From a virus (lineage: Duplodnaviria; Caudoviricetes): 64,000 nt of DNA. Numbering within the stretch: the first letter of the stretch is position 1; the number at the start of each line of letters is the position of its first letter. The translations under genes and the position numbers were made by a program. The notes beneath the pieces are model-generated. The model was given only the letters and a program-made list of their open reading frames with translations. It had not been told where the DNA came from and made no database searches. Below, piece after piece: positions 363 through 63,534 of the stretch. The DNA lies in the IMG/VR virus record IMGVR_UViG_3300021168_000003, positions 1,954-65,953 of that record. One strand, given 5' to 3'.

Positions 363-413
363 GTCAGTGTAATGAAGAAACGCGGCAACGACCGCAACAA
401 AGGGACCAGGAAC

Positions 414-3787: not shown

Positions 3788-4092
3788 GGAGCACCCGCAT
3801 GGCCATCCCTTTTGATCTGCCCTCTTCGCTTGTCGCCCTGGTGCCGCCTGTGCGTGTACCGCCGAGTGAAGTGGTTAAGCTGATCACAGACGCCTACGCC
3901 GCCGGCAAGCGGGCGGGCCAAGCTGAGTTACTGAAGATAGCCGTTGATGTAATTCAGCCTGTCCAGCGAAAATAAATATCGGATCGCCTACGTTTCGCCG
4001 TTGACATCGCTTACGCCGTCGTCCAAATGATGTCTTAACAGAGACACAATAAGTCTACAAGAACCTACTGGCTTAACTGATGGGACTAGGGA

Positions 4093-44269: not shown

Positions 44270-44650
44270 TCAGTTGAAAACGACGAACTGGATCTTGATC
44301 GCCGCGTTGAAAGCCGCCGAGGCGTGGATGTTCTGGATGATGATGACCACCGAGCCGGCCGCAGGCTTGACCGAGGCAACCGTCGGCGTGCCGCCAGTGC
44401 CTGCGCCGAGGTTGACCGAAACCATCACGAGCGAGCTCGCGAGGATCTTGTTGTTCGTCAGCGTCAGCGTGTACGTCGACCCAGCGGTCGTCGTCAGGGC
44501 TTCCGACGTGATGTTGCCGAAACCGGCATTGAGCGTGGCAGCGTTCGAAGCAGCCGTGGCGACTTCATTGCCGACCGGAGTCGTGCTCTGGTCATCGACC
44601 TGGATCGAGATGCGGTCGCCGCCGCCGGTGCGGATGGAATGGGCCTTCAT
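44270..44650 (-). CDS. putative head decoration protein
   Basis: AATLN..G.ITSEALTT.AGS.YTLTLTN. Confidence 0.55.
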   Translation of the reverse strand: MKAHSIRTGGGDRISIQVDDQSTTPVGNEVATAASNAATLNAGFGNITSEALTTTAGSTYTLTLTNNKILASSLVMVSVNLGAGTGGTPTVASVKPAAGSVVIIIQNIHASAAFNAAIKIQFVVFN

Positions 44651-56640: not shown

Positions 56641-56732
56641 AAAAAAGTGGGGGCTAGCGTCGACGCACTTAAGCGAGCGCGGCCAGCCCCCAAGTCGGGG
56701 GGAGGAACAGCGCCGGGAGTCTAAGTCGGCGC
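56641..56732 (-). ncRNA. candidate small RNA or attenuator leader with anti-SD-like tract
   Basis: promoter TTGACG-17-TATCTC (56767-56739); 5' hairpin GCGCCG/CGGCGC; single-stranded UGUUCCUCCCCCC; terminator hairpin plus U6. Confidence 0.55.
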
Positions 56733-56770
56733 AGCACTGAGATAGGACGTCAGTGTCCTGACGTCAAGGG

Positions 56771-58273
56771 CTAGAGGACAAAGTTGGCCGCGGTGAGCAC
56801 CGGGTTGCCAGCGAGCTTGAGCTGCATGTCAGGGTAGAAGCTGCCCGGCATGTAGACGCTGACCAGGGTGTAAGTCCCCAAGGTGGATAGGGCGACCTGG
56901 CTGCCGCCTGTCGGCGCGGCAGCGCCAATGAAGGTGAATGCGCCCATGGCGCTGAGGTCGATCACGTCGGTCGCCACGTTGAACCCGGTGATCACGTCAG
57001 GCTGCTGCGGCTGGCTATCGCCGGGCGAGAGGTAGACGAAGACGCTGGGCTGGCCGGCCGCGGTGTTGATATACTGGCCGCCGAAGCCGCCGACGAAGGT
57101 GTTGGGCTTAGTCGTGACCCCGTAGAGGTGGGCCAGCGGAACGCCGCTGTAGAGGACGTTGGCCTTGTTGGGGTAGGCGCTCCACGCCGCCGCGGACCAC
57201 TGAGGGTTGTGGTAGTCGACGACCGTGTTGGGCGTCATGGTGATGTTGGGGCCCGGGCTTGGGCTGGAGCTGAGCGGGTAGAACTCATAGCTGCTCCAGA
57301 AGCCGATGTAGTTGCCCGTGACGTTGATGTTGTTGATCTGGCCATACTGGCCTTGCACCCCGGTGAAGGGTGCCACGAGGTAGCCGATCGTCGACTGCTG
57401 GATGTCGACCGTCGCCGCGCCGCCGAGCAGGATGTTGTTGGTCGCGGTGACGCCCATCACGTTGTCGCCGCCGTCGGTGCGGATGTAGAGCGCGGCGTTC
57501 ATGTTGCCCAGGCCGCCCGTGGGGTAGTTGTACCAGCCCGCGACGTTCCAGTTTGTCCCGTCGATCGTGTTGCCGTTGATCGTGACCGGGCCGCAGGTGC
57601 AGGGCACTGAGATGGCATCGGCGTGCGTCAAGCTGACGTTGGCCAGGCCGTTGAAGAAGCACCCGGTGACCGAACCGGCCGCGAGGTGGATGGCGTGGCT
57701 GGGGATGTCCTGGAAGAGGCATCCCGAGATTGCGCACACGCCTGCATTGCCTGAGATCGCCCCAAGGCCTGGGCCGTTGGGCGCGGGCGTGGCGAACGAC
57801 CCGATAAAGGAGCAGCCCGTCACCGTCAGCGCGAGGACCCCCGTCTGGTTCTGGATGACGAACGTGGCCGGGCCGTTGAAGTCGAACAGGCAGTTGATGA
57901 AGCTGACGCCTTGGCCCCAGTTGACGATCGACCAGCCCCGGAAGTCGACGTTGGCGAACGTCTGACCGTTGACGCCGGTGCCGATGTTGATGGTGTTGGC
58001 CTGCGTGGTGAGGATGGTCGTCAGCGCGGCGTTAGCGCCGGTGCGCAACGGGATGATCGACGCCGGCAGGATCATCCCTCCAGGAGGCGAGACGCACCCG
58101 ACCTTGGTGTCGATGCCTGTGATCTTGTAGCCGACCGGCAGGCACGCGCGCAGCATCGAGAGTTTGAGCGGGCTCAGCAGCGGCAAGGTCACGCCTGCGA
58201 CGGGGGGCAGGGCCGCCGAGGCTGAGTACGAGAACCCATCCGCAGCCGCGAAGTTGACGGTGACCGAGCTCAT
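56771..58273 (-). CDS. parallel beta-helix protein with serralysin/RTX-like C-terminal domain
   Basis: beta-helix repeats (HADAI, NN.L.GG); DVITGF...DVIDLS...FTFIG. Confidence 0.65.
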   Translation of the reverse strand: MSSVTVNFAAADGFSYSASAALPPVAGVTLPLLSPLKLSMLRACLPVGYKITGIDTKVGCVSPPGGMILPASIIPLRTGANAALTTILTTQANTINIGTGVNGQTFANVDFRGWSIVNWGQGVSFINCLFDFNGPATFVIQNQTGVLALTVTGCSFIGSFATPAPNGPGLGAISGNAGVCAISGCLFQDIPSHAIHLAAGSVTGCFFNGLANVSLTHADAISVPCTCGPVTINGNTIDGTNWNVAGWYNYPTGGLGNMNAALYIRTDGGDNVMGVTATNNILLGGAATVDIQQSTIGYLVAPFTGVQGQYGQINNINVTGNYIGFWSSYEFYPLSSSPSPGPNITMTPNTVVDYHNPQWSAAAWSAYPNKANVLYSGVPLAHLYGVTTKPNTFVGGFGGQYINTAAGQPSVFVYLSPGDSQPQQPDVITGFNVATDVIDLSAMGAFTFIGAAAPTGGSQVALSTLGTYTLVSVYMPGSFYPDMQLKLAGNPVLTAANFVL

Positions 58274-58277
58274 GGCA

Positions 58278-58592
58278 TCACGCCGTGGCTGTGGCGACGA
58301 GCGACCCGCTGCCAGCGGCTACCGTCCAGATGCGGCCGGAGCTGTCGGTCACTGAGGTGAGCGAGACGGACGGGCTCGAGACGATGGTCTGGCTGACCGG
58401 AGGCACTGGGAAGTTGACCGTGTTGGTTGACCCGTCGGCGGCGGTGAACTTGATGCTGAGCGTCGCGGCGGGGAGGGTCGAGGTCACGCTCTCCGTGTCA
58501 GTGATCCCGGTGACCGTCATGGTCATGAGCTGGCCGACGACGTACGAGGCCTTGTCGAATGTGATGGTGGGGGCTGTCCAAACGTCGCTCAC
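58278..58592 (-). CDS. small Thr/Val-rich Ig-like protein
   Basis: GAGGAG RBS; FDKASY..G..MT.TV. Confidence 0.5.
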   Translation of the reverse strand: MSDVWTAPTITFDKASYVVGQLMTMTVTGITDTESVTSTLPAATLSIKFTAADGSTNTVNFPVPPVSQTIVSSPSVSLTSVTDSSGRIWTVAAGSGSLVATATA

Positions 58593-58609
58593 GGCGCGGT
58601 CTCCTCTGT

Positions 58610-58692
58610 CCTTCGACAAGCGCTCAGGATGAGGGGTCAGTGTACCATGAGTGCGTCGGAAGGGAAGGGCCCTTCGACTGGGCTCAGGATGA
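58610..58692. repeat. two REP-like direct repeats CCTTCGAC-N4/5-CTCAGGATGA
   Basis: copies at 58610-58632 and 58670-58692. Confidence 0.55.
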
Positions 58693-58694
58693 TG

Positions 58695-58770
58695 TGGTGC
58701 CGCGGCGAGGGATCGAACCCCGGACATCCTCGTTACGAATGAGGTGCTCTACCGACTGAGCTACCGCGGC
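58695..58770 (-). tRNA. tRNA-Thr(CGT)
   Basis: 76-nt cloverleaf; TAGCTCAGTCGGTAGAGC D arm, TT-CGT-AA loop, GGTTCGA T loop, encoded CCA. Confidence 0.9.
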
Positions 58771-58773
58771 ATG

Positions 58774-58849
58774 TGGCTTGAGAGCCAGGGCTCGAACCTG
58801 GGACATCTTCGTTAACAGCGAAGCGCTCTGCCGGCTGAGCTACTCTCAA
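58774..58849 (-). tRNA. tRNA-Asn(GTT)
   Basis: 76-nt cloverleaf; CTTCG-CT-GTT-AA-CGAAG anticodon arm; encoded CCA. Confidence 0.9.
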
Positions 58850-58860
58850 ACAGTCCTAAG

Positions 58861-58888
58861 AATGTAGCACGGTTCGGACGTGCGTCAA
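58861..58888 (-). promoter_or_regulatory. tRNA operon promoter
   Basis: TTGACG-16-TACATT (GCTACATT). Confidence 0.65.
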
Positions 58889-58990
58889 CGGTCGCGCGCT
58901 TGAGGAGATAGGCAGTTGGCAGAAACTAGCAGGAAATTGGCAGGCAAAAGCAGGACGCTGCCCGAAGGATGTAGCATGGTTCGGCCAAGA

Positions 58991-59094
58991 AAGAAAAAAG
59001 GACCGCAGCCCTCTGGTGCCGTTAGGCAGTTGTCCCCAGGGCTGCGGTCGAGTCTGGCCTAACTGCTAGGTGGGACCAGGAATGGTTTCCTAGC
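58991..59094 (-). ncRNA. candidate antisense small RNA against the shared early/polA RBS leader
   Basis: promoter TTGTTT-17-CATATC (59129-59101); GCUAGG/CCUAGC hairpin with loop AAACCAUUCCUGGUCCCA; 12-bp terminator stem plus U tract; no ORF. Confidence 0.65.
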
Positions 59095-59330
59095 GGTACT
59101 GATATGGCAGCATTGTTGACGGGAAACAATAGGTGATTCTACGTAGTTTGTACGGAGTCTAAGCTGGTATTGGTTTGAGCAGAAGTACAACAGAAATGTT
59201 AGGGAGTTGCTTAAGTAAATTTGCTAAAAAATTTTCAAAAAGTTACGCGTGCTACGATGGAACCGCGCGACGCCATAGCAACTCTTTCCCCCCTTACACC
59301 CCTTCAAAAGCAAAGAATGCTTATTCGCCT

Positions 59331-59347
59331 AGTAACGCGAAGTTACT
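59331..59347. promoter_or_regulatory. AGTAAC-N5-GTTACT box upstream of the first early promoter
   Basis: AGTAACGCGAAGTTACT followed by TTGACT...GCTATTGT. Confidence 0.65.
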
Positions 59348-59426
59348 GCGCCGCGTTTGACTTCTCTCGCGTTTGTGCTATTGTTTGAGTGTGGCAATCA
59401 CGTCACGCATCGAAAGGCCTAACACC

Positions 59427-60122
59427 ATGTCAAACATCTCCAACCAAGACGCAATGCGCGCAGCGGGCAAAGGCTCACAGCAGTCTTATGCATCGGCCAT
59501 TGCTATCCTCACTGGCCAGACTGACGAAGCGTATATCGCTACATTGCGTCAGGACTATCTGATCGGCGCTTTGACTGGCGTCGACGGCGTCACGGTCGAA
59601 CAAGCGATTGACTACCTTCCCGTTGCTGACGCCAAGCCTGGCACGAAGGGCAAATGGTCCGACTTCCCGGTCAACGATCCGTCAACGTTCGACGCGACCG
59701 TGCATCGGCCGCGCGACGTTCACAACGCCTACCGCTCCGGCCTCATGGGCTGGTCGCGCGTTCGCGCGTCAGCTGGCCTCCCGTCGCTCAAGGCCACGAC
59801 TAAGCATGAGCCGCGCGCGCCCAAGTCCGCCGCCGAGACTGGCGTCGCTGTGGCCGTCGATACCTTCGTCGCGCCGTCGCATCTCGATACCGCCGCCGCG
59901 GTCCAGTTGGCGCATCACCTCGAGGATGTCCTGCGCCGCGTTCTCGGCTCAAAGGAAATTAAGGGTGACGCTGGCAAGGCGCTAAGGGATATGCACCGCG
60001 ATATGACCGAATATCTTGCGGAGGCTGATAAGGCCTTAGCGCCGGCCACCGAAACGCAGGACGAGATAATTAAGCGCCTAACGGCTGAACTAGCTAAGCG
60101 GCCGGTTAAGAAAGCCGCTTAA
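59427..60122 (+). CDS. monocistronic early protein, hypothetical
   Basis: own promoter, GAAAGG RBS, own terminator. Confidence 0.65.
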   Translation: MSNISNQDAMRAAGKGSQQSYASAIAILTGQTDEAYIATLRQDYLIGALTGVDGVTVEQAIDYLPVADAKPGTKGKWSDFPVNDPSTFDATVHRPRDVHNAYRSGLMGWSRVRASAGLPSLKATTKHEPRAPKSAAETGVAVAVDTFVAPSHLDTAAAVQLAHHLEDVLRRVLGSKEIKGDAGKALRDMHRDMTEYLAEADKALAPATETQDEIIKRLTAELAKRPVKKAA

Positions 60123-60195
60123 GGCTTAACTCCTAGACCGATCGAAACTCGGATACCGATCGTTCTTGGAAGTGTTCTGATTACCAGTTAAGATT

Positions 60196-60224
60196 AAGGG
60201 CCGCGCGAGCGGCCCTTTTTGTTT
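60196..60224 (+). terminator. rho-independent terminator
   Basis: AAGGGCCGC-GCGA-GCGGCCCTT followed by TTTGTTT. Confidence 0.85.
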
Positions 60225-60577
60225 GTCCGGAGTTTTATTAGCGCTAAGCTAAAGTTAAGCGCTTAAGCGGCGTCATGCATACCGTAAGTCATTGATGTTC
60301 CAAAACACCATATATATATATATATCTATTATAGATTATTCGACGAAAGGACTCGTCTGAGAAGATTTTTCCGCTGCCTTACGGGCTTAACGGCTAAAAT
60401 CTCGTTAAGCGCTTAAAACTCTAAACCACACGTACACGTCGTATAAAGTCCCCTTCTAGAAATTCTCTCTTTTCGTCGAATAACGCCCTCCAGTTTAATG
60501 TATAATCCATGTCAGTGTCCTTTCAGTGTGTTGCCCTATTGCGCTTTCACGCCTTAACGCTTATTTTAAGCTAAGAA

Positions 60578-60600
60578 GTCAGTAACAGGGTGTTACTGAC
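60578..60600. promoter_or_regulatory. extended palindromic box GTCAGTAAC-N5-GTTACTGAC
   Basis: perfect 9-bp arms. Confidence 0.7.
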
Positions 60601-60627
60601 ACCTTAAAACCCTTAAGAGACACTGAC

Positions 60628-61461
60628 ATGGGCCGTGAAACTCGCAACAGAGCCACTTACATAGGCTACCCTCGCTTCGTAAGAGGTGACTTAGGTGATG
60701 GGAATAGCCGCGCCGTGATACCTGCGCCTTATCGTAAATTCGACGCTGGCCACGTTTACGAGAACGTCCAGGTCGTAAACCGTAAACGACGGCTAGGATT
60801 TAACGACATGGTGGAAGTGCTCCACCATGTTCCGTTTATAAAATGGACGGTGGACGATCAGGCTGAGGCGGTTAAGCGCGGCTATTTCGTCGAACGCCAT
60901 GCTCACGACAATCACGCGATCATCATCCCGCTGCCGCTGCACACATTCAAGAGCGATAGCGAAGTGATGTCCTCTGAAATGAAGCGTGCGAAAGACGGTG
61001 ACAGGTGGACAATCGAACGCTTTTTGCCGTTCGTTGTCCAGCAGGATCAGCGTGGCTGGACTGGAACATGGGACAAGGCAATCGAGACTTATAACGCCAA
61101 ATTGATTTGGTATAGAACGCGCGTAGCTGCCACGCGAGCCGCCCGCGACGCAGCAGCTGCATCGAAGCCTCGCGGCAGGCCGAAGGGTACGCCCTACGCC
61201 CGCGAGCTATTCGCCGAGCAACAGTTCAAGGCGTGGCCAGTGGCCAGCGGCGTGACATTCCACGATTGGTGCAAAACGCAACCATCGTTCGGTGAATGGT
61301 TGGAGCTCAATCCGGACGCCAACGTCCCACGCACATGGAAGCCGAAAGACTACAGCGTGCCGACGGCCAAAGAGCAGTATGAGGCCCGCATCCGCGAGGC
61401 TTACGGCAACGACGCGCTTAGCGATCCGGAGCACGCGTGGAGGCCCAAAAGCCGACAGTGA
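60628..61461 (+). CDS. hypothetical protein with AT-hook-like motif
   Basis: KPRGRPKG motif; follows an AT-rich structured region. Confidence 0.55.
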   Translation: MGRETRNRATYIGYPRFVRGDLGDGNSRAVIPAPYRKFDAGHVYENVQVVNRKRRLGFNDMVEVLHHVPFIKWTVDDQAEAVKRGYFVERHAHDNHAIIIPLPLHTFKSDSEVMSSEMKRAKDGDRWTIERFLPFVVQQDQRGWTGTWDKAIETYNAKLIWYRTRVAATRAARDAAAASKPRGRPKGTPYARELFAEQQFKAWPVASGVTFHDWCKTQPSFGEWLELNPDANVPRTWKPKDYSVPTAKEQYEARIREAYGNDALSDPEHAWRPKSRQ

Positions 61462-61465
61462 AAAC

Positions 61466-61494
61466 TTGACATAAGCTCACAGATGTGGTATGGT
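61466..61494 (+). promoter_or_regulatory. sigma70-like early promoter
   Basis: TTGACA-17-TATGGT; AGTAAC-N5-GTTACT box downstream at 61551-61567. Confidence 0.7.
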
Positions 61495-61595
61495 GTTACT
61501 TCAGTTAGGAAAAGTGTCTGCCCACTGACAATTTTAATTGACACACGCCTAGTAACATGTCGTTACTGAGGCAAAAAAGAGAGGGGACCAGGAAC

Positions 61596-61817
61596 ATGTC
61601 ACAACCGTATTTCTGCGAAGGCTCCGACGCCATGGTTGATTTAGAGACCATGGTTGACCGCGTCGGCTTGAACAATGTGCTCTATGCGCTGGCTCACATA
61701 TGCCGCGCCAAAGGCGAGCATCTCAGAGCGGCGTGGCAAGACGCTACTACCGCCAATGTGTGGGACAAGAATGCTGTCGCATTGGACAGGGTCCAAGAGC
61801 GCTTGATCCGAACTTGA
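61596..61817 (+). CDS. early hypothetical protein
   Basis: GGGACCAGGAAC-ATG leader. Confidence 0.65.
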   Translation: MSQPYFCEGSDAMVDLETMVDRVGLNNVLYALAHICRAKGEHLRAAWQDATTANVWDKNAVALDRVQERLIRT

Positions 61818-61913
61818 CCGCTTTCGATGCCGCTCCATTGCGTGCGGCATCACTGGCGACCAACGCCAACCCAGTAACGATGTGTTACTGAGGATAAAGA
61901 AGGGACCAGGAAC

Positions 61914-62333
61914 ATGTCAGAGATCGACATCACAGATTTCGTGTTGAACGTCAACACGCACGACCTATCAGCCAGCGTCGCTGAAATGGGCCAGAATGCT
62001 GGTAAGATCACTTGGGCTAACGCCAAGAGCGAGGCCCAGACATATCAATTCATCACTGAAGACAACCGTCCTGAGTTTGAAGCTTGGGTCGAAGGCTTCG
62101 GCGCATGGGATGAAGACGAGCGCAAGTCATGGTCGCTTGACGAGTGCAACGCGCTATTGATCCAGTTCATTGCGGGCGACATGAACGAAATTGAGGCCTT
62201 GTGCTCCGACTTCGAAGGCGAGATTGATTGGGACGCCGTCGAACAACTGGGCCAAGCAGGGACGATTAGCTCGCGCATATACGGCGGGTCGCAATCTATC
62301 GACGGCCGCATCTATTTCTACATGGGCGACTGA
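61914..62333 (+). CDS. acidic early hypothetical protein
   Basis: GGGACCAGGAAC-ATG leader; box at 61873-61889. Confidence 0.65.
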   Translation: MSEIDITDFVLNVNTHDLSASVAEMGQNAGKITWANAKSEAQTYQFITEDNRPEFEAWVEGFGAWDEDERKSWSLDECNALLIQFIAGDMNEIEALCSDFEGEIDWDAVEQLGQAGTISSRIYGGSQSIDGRIYFYMGD

Positions 62334-62424
62334 CCGCTTTAGAAGGGCACGCGAGACGTGCCCTTCACTGGCGACCAAGCCAGCGCTAGGCTAAAAGGCC
62401 AGCGTCAACACAGGGACCAGGACC

Positions 62425-63513: not shown

Positions 63514-63534
63514 AAATGAAAAGGGACTAGGAAC

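Follow-up and report, generated by a model that had tools for sequence, protein, structure and literature searches.

Phage antisense RNAs and small RNAs with multiple targets are both known kinds of regulator. The C4 RNAs of P1 and P7 and the CI RNA of P4 act on one transcript of their own operon, from which they are also processed. In T4, early mRNAs are shut off together through a shared feature of their ribosome-binding sites, the effector being a protein (RegB/RegA; a nuclease or a repressor), and in lambda a short promoter-to-terminator leader RNA (6S, PR'-tR') stands before the late operon and is read through with an antiterminator; this leader is not known to have a trans target. The closest described counterpart of the locus treated here lies in Cluster K mycobacteriophages, where start-associated sequences (SAS) are 13-bp asymmetric elements (GGGATAGGAGCCC) situated 3-7 bp before mostly ATG starts, confined to non-structural genes in a single orientation and preceded by inverted repeats at about half of the copies (PMC3203893). 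Each K1 phage additionally has one SAS in the opposite orientation, away from gene starts, and the sections on SAS in Pope et al. (2011) leave the function unknown and the choice between RNA and protein as the binder open (PMC3203893); the role is still called unknown in the passages on SAS of papers from 2024 and 2025. Late transcription has been reported to begin in the very gap that holds the reversed SAS. Here we describe a comparable arrangement in a phage from soil metagenomes. The window analysed (64,000 nt; bases 1954-65953 of the 65,953-bp IMG/VR record IMGVR_UViG_3300021168_000003, below G000) carries at 59129-58987 on the minus strand a putative promoter, a hairpin and a terminator, and the hairpin loop is the complement of a motif that stands directly before early gene starts on the plus strand. 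Our preferred reading, to which we assign a probability of roughly 0.45, is that this unit would give rise to an anti-SAS RNA from the late-gene strand that pairs with the ribosome-binding sites of early genes.

The unit and the copies of the start motif are laid out as follows.

59129-59101, minus strand: putative promoter from sequence reading, TTGTTT (59129-59124), 17-nt spacer, TG (59109-59108) and CATATC (59106-59101)
59094-59065, minus strand: hairpin 1, GCUAGG (59094-59089) paired with CCUAGC (59070-59065), 18-nt loop AAACCAUUCCUGGUCCCA
59049-58987, minus strand: intrinsic terminator, 12-bp G+C-rich stem (59049-59038 with 59012-59001) followed by CUUUUUUCUUUCUU (59000-58987)
59072-59082, plus strand: orphan motif copy GGGACCAGGAA, followed by ATG GTT TCC TAG (59082-59093), three codons only
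402-412, plus strand: start motif before ATG 414 (260-aa GP88-family protein)
4082-4092, plus strand: variant of the start motif, GGGACTAGGGA, preceding ATG 4093 (family-A DNA polymerase split in two, N-terminal part)
61584-61594, plus strand: start motif before ATG 61596 (73 aa)
61902-61912, plus strand: start motif before ATG 61914 (139 aa, phrog_24784)
62413-62423, plus strand: start motif GGGACCAGGAC before ATG 62425 (54 aa)
63523-63533, plus strand: start motif GGGACTAGGAA before ATG 63535 (175 aa, 11-residue tandem repeats)
genome position 164, plus strand: start motif before a 182-aa open reading frame (ORF), in the 1,953 record bases outside the window

Plus-strand genes run from 59427 across the record ends to ~18070 and include those for the GP88-family protein, DNA polymerase A (as two ORFs), a helicase, a primase-helicase and a tyrosine integrase, while the minus strand carries most of the structural genes, among them those for the major head protein and an adaptor/portal-like protein. 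The labels early (plus block) and late (minus block) are assigned by gene content alone, and the candidate RNA unit is located in the 580-bp divergent region that separates the two blocks. The motif GGGACYAGG occurs eight times in the record, always on the plus strand (8/8, with 0 on the minus strand), and seven of the eight copies stand 0-3 nt ahead of the ATG of unrelated ORFs of 54-363 aa. With up to one mismatch allowed, GGGACYAGGAA was found seven times in the window (402, 4082, 59072, 61584, 61902, 62413 and 63523) against 1.5 expected, a count reached in none of 100 shuffles. An earlier note on this DNA had recognised the shared ribosome-binding sequence on six leaders; all six hold, and the copy at genome position 164 extends the tally to seven gene starts. 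The tagged genes comprise the GP88-like gene, the polymerase part and small early ORFs, with the structural genes on the opposite strand.

The eighth copy, the orphan, coincides with the hairpin loop: it reads GGGACCAGGAATGGTTTCCTAG on the plus strand, all 11 of its 11 core bases match, and the loop segment UUCCUGGUCCC complements the motif GGGACCAGGAA. Across the window the two would pair over 11 bp, with a G-U pair at the position that varies between C and T, over 10 bp at 62413, and with a one-base bulge at the polymerase leader. The putative promoter has an extended -10 box, TGcCATATC, and 15 nt separate hairpin 1 from the terminator stem. Folding of 59094 to 58985 (110 nt) with RNAfold yields both hairpins at -46.8 kcal/mol (z = -3.9; 1 of 200 shuffles as good). 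The plus strand folds equally well (z = -4.6), and the fold cannot choose between the strands because the stems are palindromic in DNA. We nevertheless place the unit on the minus strand, since the U tract of the terminator lies there and the plus strand has none, and since no minus-strand gene upstream needs terminating; for the same reasons, something short must end at this terminator. On the simplest reading of the anatomy, a minus-strand promoter, hairpin and terminator without a gene to terminate would form a discrete unit. The promoter boxes, stem, 18-nt loop, terminator and motif sites named in the earlier note are all present where it had placed them. On the plus strand the ATG of the orphan opens a frame of three codons; on the minus strand, mechanical ORFs of 35 and 43 aa with TTG starts overlap the unit. 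Rfam at gathering score identified two tRNAs only in the whole window, and cmscan of 58850-59430 against 4,227 Rfam families gave 0 matches at E <= 10. Contigs of four DNA runs show no variants across the unit and give no comparative information because they are identical to the window there.

Relatives were collected with the capsid protein, which has 197 IMG/VR relatives at 71-92% identity (80 kept); 15 whole or long records were fetched and oriented like the window (G001-G015). Within this set, G005 has a capsid 75% identical to that of G000 and no DNA similarity to it in the divergent region, and it possesses a start motif of its own, AGGATCAG-N3-5-ATG. GGATCAG-N3-5-ATG occurs there ten times on the plus strand (nine gene starts and an orphan at 44566) and once on the minus strand. 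The orphan belongs to the divergent region that precedes the first late gene; it is located ~25 nt upstream of a 13-bp minus-strand terminator and lies in a hairpin, GCAUG-UCGCUGAUCCG-CAUGC (plus strand cGGATCAGcgacATG), whose tip CUGAUCC is the complement of G005's own motif. Upstream of this hairpin, a box TGcTATATC that itself has TGTT upstream aligns with TGcCATATC of G000 (joint form TGcYATATC), and the terminators end in GGUCCUUUUUCU in G005 and GGUCCUUUUUUCU in the window. By our own arithmetic, the chance of finding the core plus a correctly spaced ATG in a window of 70-100 nt is ~1e-3 or less. The G005 orphan was first noticed by eye and then recovered by a blind scan, and it constitutes a single independent replicate. 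That scan took in 96 related sequences, with 280 terminator-like sites between them, and looked at most 110 nt upstream of each site for a 7-mer plus ATG that recurs at no fewer than three opposite-strand gene starts; G005 gave the highest count (9 starts) and G000 gave 4, with the remaining rows at counts of 3-6, some equal to or above that of G000, made up of G+C-rich or Shine-Dalgarno-like k-mers that we read as noise. One high row, in G011, was rejected: its motif copy is a real gene start and the terminator beside it ends an upstream plus-strand gene. Co-variation of loop and leader between relatives, a check suggested in the earlier note, was seen in the one relative that allows the comparison, with loop and motif both following GGGACCAGGAA in G000 and (A)GGATCAG in G005, which makes one independent pair.

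The Cluster K genomes offer a second, independent setting. The right 36 kb of Anaya contain 16 forward SAS and one reversed copy, in a 385-nt non-coding gap between gp96 and gp97, and in Adephagia the reversed SAS is in the gp92-93 gap, where its hairpin spans 58,656-58,720. This gap is conserved in 182 Cluster K records, many of them without an annotated gene under it, and the reversed SAS forms the apical loop of a long hairpin. For 12 of the 16 phages examined, the RNAalifold consensus has 17 pairs, compensatory changes affect 8 of these, and several G-U pairs occur on the rightward strand only (A-C on the other strand). A near-exact anti-SAS loop (1-2 mismatches) is present in 7 of the 12 aligned phages, namely K1-like phages and SgtBeansprout (K1/K5). 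In each of two unrelated phage groups, the tip of a hairpin at the onset of late-strand transcription (reported in one, predicted in the other) holds a single complement of the group's own start motif.

Upstream of the Adephagia hairpin lie short tandem repeats resembling CGCCGACGCC (L240 1500-1545 = 58,499-58,544). Also upstream of the Cluster K anti-SAS hairpin are a -10-like box, TAGACT, and another strong hairpin, GGCCCCGGCGCUCC...GGAGUGUUGGGGCC (Adephagia; Anaya L231 34720-34740).

Like the Cluster K SAS, the G000 motif is asymmetric, longer than a Shine-Dalgarno sequence and placed a few bases before the ATG of genes from unrelated families; both occur in one orientation on non-structural genes only, have one extra copy off gene starts and belong to temperate phages of ~60-66 kb. 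Measured against the definition of SAS and extended SAS (ESAS), the motif is asymmetric, at least 11 bp long, abuts ATG, keeps to one orientation and to non-structural genes, and has inverted repeats at a subset of its copies. These inverted repeats have arms of 6 bp in G000, not 17 bp. The motif itself differs from the Cluster K consensus (GGGACYAGGAAC in G000), and the phages appear unrelated, with GenBank phage searches by the 500-aa ORF and by the DNA of 58000-62000 unmatched. The extra copy also differs: in G000 it has the same DNA orientation as the others and lies in an opposite-strand unit with its own terminator, whereas the extra copy of Cluster K is inverted and part of the rightward late leader. 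The G000 motif is on this comparison best regarded as analogous to SAS, not as a member.

Searches in GenBank and IMG/VR brought no DNA relatives of this region, and the genes that flank it are nearly orphans. GenBank phages contained no match to 58000-62000 by megablast or to the 500-aa ORF by tblastn, IMG/VR had none to an exact 18-mer (motif plus start), and five related records compared with the intergenic region by BLAST showed chance matches of 14-18 nt only. The 500-aa gene led to one, non-syntenic locus, the first early gene to one 1.3-kb metagenome contig with ~50 nt upstream (and to no match in IMG/VR or in genomes), and the 139-aa gene to no relatives. GP88 yielded 80 loci, mostly of 40-kb phages; the start motif was absent before the GP88 gene in the top 8 loci inspected. 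The terS-like first late gene of the relatives yielded 13 loci that, apart from copies of G005 and G009 and unrelated architectures, contributed nothing further, and the 149-aa and 187-aa genes of G000 do not belong to this terS-like family. The closest relative, G006 (capsid 92%), has a record that stops ~100 nt short of the divergent region. Other relatives have start motifs of their own, AAGGAAACCA in G003 and GGAGTKACTKACC-ATG in G004, G007, G010, G011 and G013 (the GGAGTKACT clade), and G001 has ordinary GGAG sites; standardised early leaders therefore seem to be a lineage-variable habit of this phage group.

Transcription of the divergent region and its control may involve three further features.

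59357-59384, plus strand: early promoter (sigma-70 scan), TTGACT-16-TATTGT with TG, leading into the early genes from ATG 59427
58888-58861, minus strand: strong promoter (sigma-70 scan), TTGACG-16-TACATT with TG, leading into tRNA-Asn, tRNA-Thr and the leftward genes
59331-59347: AGTAAC-N5-GTTACT, an operator-like palindrome adjoining the early promoter on its upstream side

The phage genome has sigma-70 promoters that are close to the consensus and carry a TGc extended -10 box. The palindrome has five copies (311-327, 59331-59347, 60581-60597, 61551-61567 and 61873-61889) against 0.7 expected, and five were reached in 0 of 100 shuffles. Three of them (311, 61551 and 61873; arms of 6 bp) lie 15-75 nt upstream of start motif copies; counted over the whole record, 4 of the 7 copies at gene starts have the palindrome ahead of them, and the start-motif leaders are parts of larger cassettes with palindrome and A-rich spacer. 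Placed beside early promoters and leaders, the five palindromes look like operators and point to a DNA-binding regulator; among candidates for it, the sole HTH_3 match was below the cut-off. In G005, an analogous ATTAAC-N2-3-GTTAAT stands ahead of many start motifs. The proposal in the earlier note that the RNA replaces a CI repressor finds no support, because the phage has an integrase and palindromes suggestive of a DNA-binding regulator, which leave RNA-only repression without CI unsupported. Since the unit heads the late-gene strand, its position would favour shut-off of early genes over lysogenic immunity.

How might such a unit work? As a small non-coding RNA gene of ~105 nt, it would present on its 5' hairpin the complement of the phage's own SAS, GGGACYAGGAAC-ATG, and may double as a terminated leader at the 5' end of leftward transcription along the late strand. 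The RNA could pair with the messages of seven plus-strand early and replication genes, covering their ribosome-binding regions from -12 to -2, and this pairing might block initiation or invite cleavage. One RNA would in this way turn down the whole motif-tagged set, most likely as leftward (late) transcription rises. We infer minus-strand transcription, pairing, repression by pairing and its timing from the layout; RNA-RNA pairing that occludes the tagged ribosome-binding regions would be the most economical mechanism.

Several observations weigh against an anti-SAS RNA. The sigma-70 consensus scan of the divergent region called only 58888-58861 (minus) and 59357-59384 (plus), not the promoter of the unit, whose -10 box is without the conserved final T. 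Within the 18-nt loop, ACCA and UGGU are predicted to pair as an inner helix of 4 bp capped by a UUCC tetraloop; UUCC and CCCA stay unpaired, and only part of the anti-motif is free because this helix covers part of the loop. The earlier note had expected the tagged leaders to top a ranking by pairing energy, which they fail to do: a 24-nt probe puts one motif site (61568, ~-25 kcal/mol) in the top 16, and its duplex energy is no better than that of many unrelated windows of this G+C-rich genome. The target signal is the repeated exact sequence match, not thermodynamics. In a position weight matrix scan of G005, the orphan falls outside the 22 best matches; it is unremarkable by this measure because its flanks differ, and only the core and the ATG spacing are distinctive. 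An orphan beside a minus-strand terminator was found in only two of the eight records with a standardised motif (G000 and G005; some records are incomplete), and no orphan anti-motif was found in G003, G004, G007, G010, G011 and G013. Ahead of its first late gene, G009 combines a good TTGACC-17-TACCAT promoter with a hairpin and a terminator, but nothing there is complementary to its start regions, so that such a unit can exist without an anti-motif. The unit may thus be primarily a late-strand leader that has acquired the anti-motif in some lineages. In Cluster K, too, five of the 12 aligned phages (Unicornvirus, Amginevirus) keep the hairpin with other, C/U-rich loops that are partial complements of SAS, and a 13-mer search did not locate the hairpin in Marshawn, TClif, Keshu and SirPhilip.

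Compared with the other known systems, the candidate resembles the C4 and P4 CI RNAs in being a small structured RNA of a temperate phage whose loop is complementary to a target that includes the ribosome-binding region. It is unlike them in having seven targets dispersed over ~10 kb of the plus strand and in being encoded on the minus strand with its own promoter-like box and terminator. The likeness drawn in the earlier note stands as an analogy only, with no Rfam match even at E <= 10. Joint early shut-off through a feature of the ribosome-binding site recalls T4 RegB/RegA, except that an RNA effector is proposed in G000. With lambda PR'-tR' the unit shares a promoter and terminator directly before late genes on the same strand (in G000, G005 and G009), but another strong promoter follows the terminator in G000. 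In the passages covered by our literature searches, we found no proposal of an RNA against a phage-wide start motif at the head of late transcription.

This lambda-like arrangement underlies the rival that survives best, although we still consider it unlikely: the unit would be only a terminated leader (attenuator) of the late operon, with a constitutive promoter and a terminator that is read through only with the help of a phage antiterminator, and the complement would be incidental or a relic. The unit does head the late-gene strand in G000, G005 and G009, the G009 unit lacks the anti-motif and has no obvious promoter between its terminator and the first late gene, and intrinsic terminators of the same build occur elsewhere, e.g. 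after the capsid gene in four records. In G000, however, the leftward genes need no read-through, since the terminator is followed by the near-consensus promoter at 58888-58861, and a mere leader leaves unexplained why two diverged phages each have their own start motif and ATG at the hairpin tip.

Less probable still is that the orphan acts on the plus strand or as DNA, as a site for the factor (protein or ribosome) that recognises the start motif, with a decoy, autoregulatory or stoperator-like role. The orientation shared with all other copies, the retained ATG and a plus strand that folds as well as the minus strand would all agree with such a site, as would the choice between RNA and protein binding of SAS left open in the sections by Pope et al. 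and their description of Cluster A stoperators as asymmetric DNA sites in one orientation (PMC3203893). Yet the orphan lies upstream of the sole called plus-strand promoter (59357-59384), and no plus-strand transcript is expected to carry it because that promoter is downstream; the mini-ORF is not conserved either (3 codons in G000 vs ~31 in G005). The Cluster K evidence argues for RNA, because the reversed copy is opposite to all others and the G-U pairs of the stem exist on the transcribed strand only.

Finally, an inert relic, i.e. the remnant of a deleted first early gene or of leader-cassette recombination that came to lie beside a terminator by chance, is similarly improbable: motif copies do carry repeated flanks (palindrome, A-rich spacer) typical of recombination-prone cassettes, the intergenic region is partly duplicated (repeats D17 and D19), most relatives are without an orphan, and recombination that homogenises motif copies could keep even an inert orphan matched to its genome, a point that also counts against an anti-SAS RNA, but a homologous unit in G005 shows the arrangement again, in the same position and with a different motif, in G000 and G005 alike the orphan occupies the very apex of the hairpin, and the reversed-SAS loop of Cluster K is kept in seven K1/K5 phages, with compensatory stem changes across 12.

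The divergent region and its surroundings show several other features. The -10 region of the strong leftward promoter (58855-58877) has a degenerate copy at 58962-58984 (D17), and 58855-59032 contains a partial tandem duplication of ~110 nt, with GGCAGTTG at 58913 and again at 59026, inside the terminator loop; these intergenic duplications are the repeats D17 and D19. Direct repeats TTGGCAG-N5-AGCAGGA are located at 58915-58955, and a sigma-54 reading of the TTGGCAG repeats (58915-58950) was ruled out by eye, their spacing being one base short. By eye, otherwise dissimilar relatives were also seen to share a short A/T-rich element in their divergent regions, AAAGAATGCTT (AAAGAATNCTTT-like), adjacent to runs of C or G (G000 at ~59305-59325, G005, L222, L226 and L229). 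A box (G/T)ACACTGAC occurs 13 times in the window (344, 53813, 56757, 60519, 60619, 63072 and others) and 25 times in G005, either within promoter spacers (TTGACA-N4-GACACTGAC-N4-TATGGT) or abutting ATG starts, and is kept between diverged phages.

Leftward of the strong promoter, on the minus strand at 58278-58849 and 56771-58273, two tRNA genes (Asn, Thr), one small ORF and the fibre-like gene of 500 aa make up a unit with its own consensus promoter and terminator. It looks like an inserted module because the relatives have the terS-like gene directly after the divergent region; the 500-aa protein is 75% identical to one on an otherwise different 44-kb contig. Right after this gene, 56641-56767 (minus) comprises a promoter-like TTGACG-17-TATCTC with the GACACTGAC box in its spacer, a hairpin and a strong terminator, and its unpaired tract CUGUUCCUCCCCCC holds UGUUCCU, which complements AGGAACA (the start motif's 3' half and the first base of ATG); the element may simply be the terminator of the tRNA/fibre unit. 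At the other end of the window, the 175-aa ORF from 63535, which crosses the record ends, encodes about ten tandem 11-residue repeats (ADYDAKRAALQ) with a 33-bp DNA unit. The 90-bp direct terminal repeat of the record falls within these repeats, and the point of circularisation may accordingly be an effect of the assembly.

Should the anti-SAS interpretation fail, what is left is a small, conserved leader-terminator element that precedes the late genes in a poorly known group of temperate soil phages. Start motifs on phage early genes were described in 2011 and still have no assigned function, and a complementary hairpin at the start of late transcription could supply a hypothesis for them. 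In its broadest form, which we regard as rather doubtful, SAS would be address tags read by RNA, and a hairpin at the head of the late transcript would silence the early set, an arrangement that would have arisen independently in G000/G005 and in K1/K5 phages. Adephagia and its relatives, with their genetic tools and published strand-specific RNA sequencing (PMC11373665 for Adephagia), make this hypothesis cheap to test. If the address-tag reading is true, it would explain the purpose of SAS; and if a single RNA indeed switches off a dispersed gene set via a shared ribosome-binding tag, this design would also be useful for synthetic gene control.

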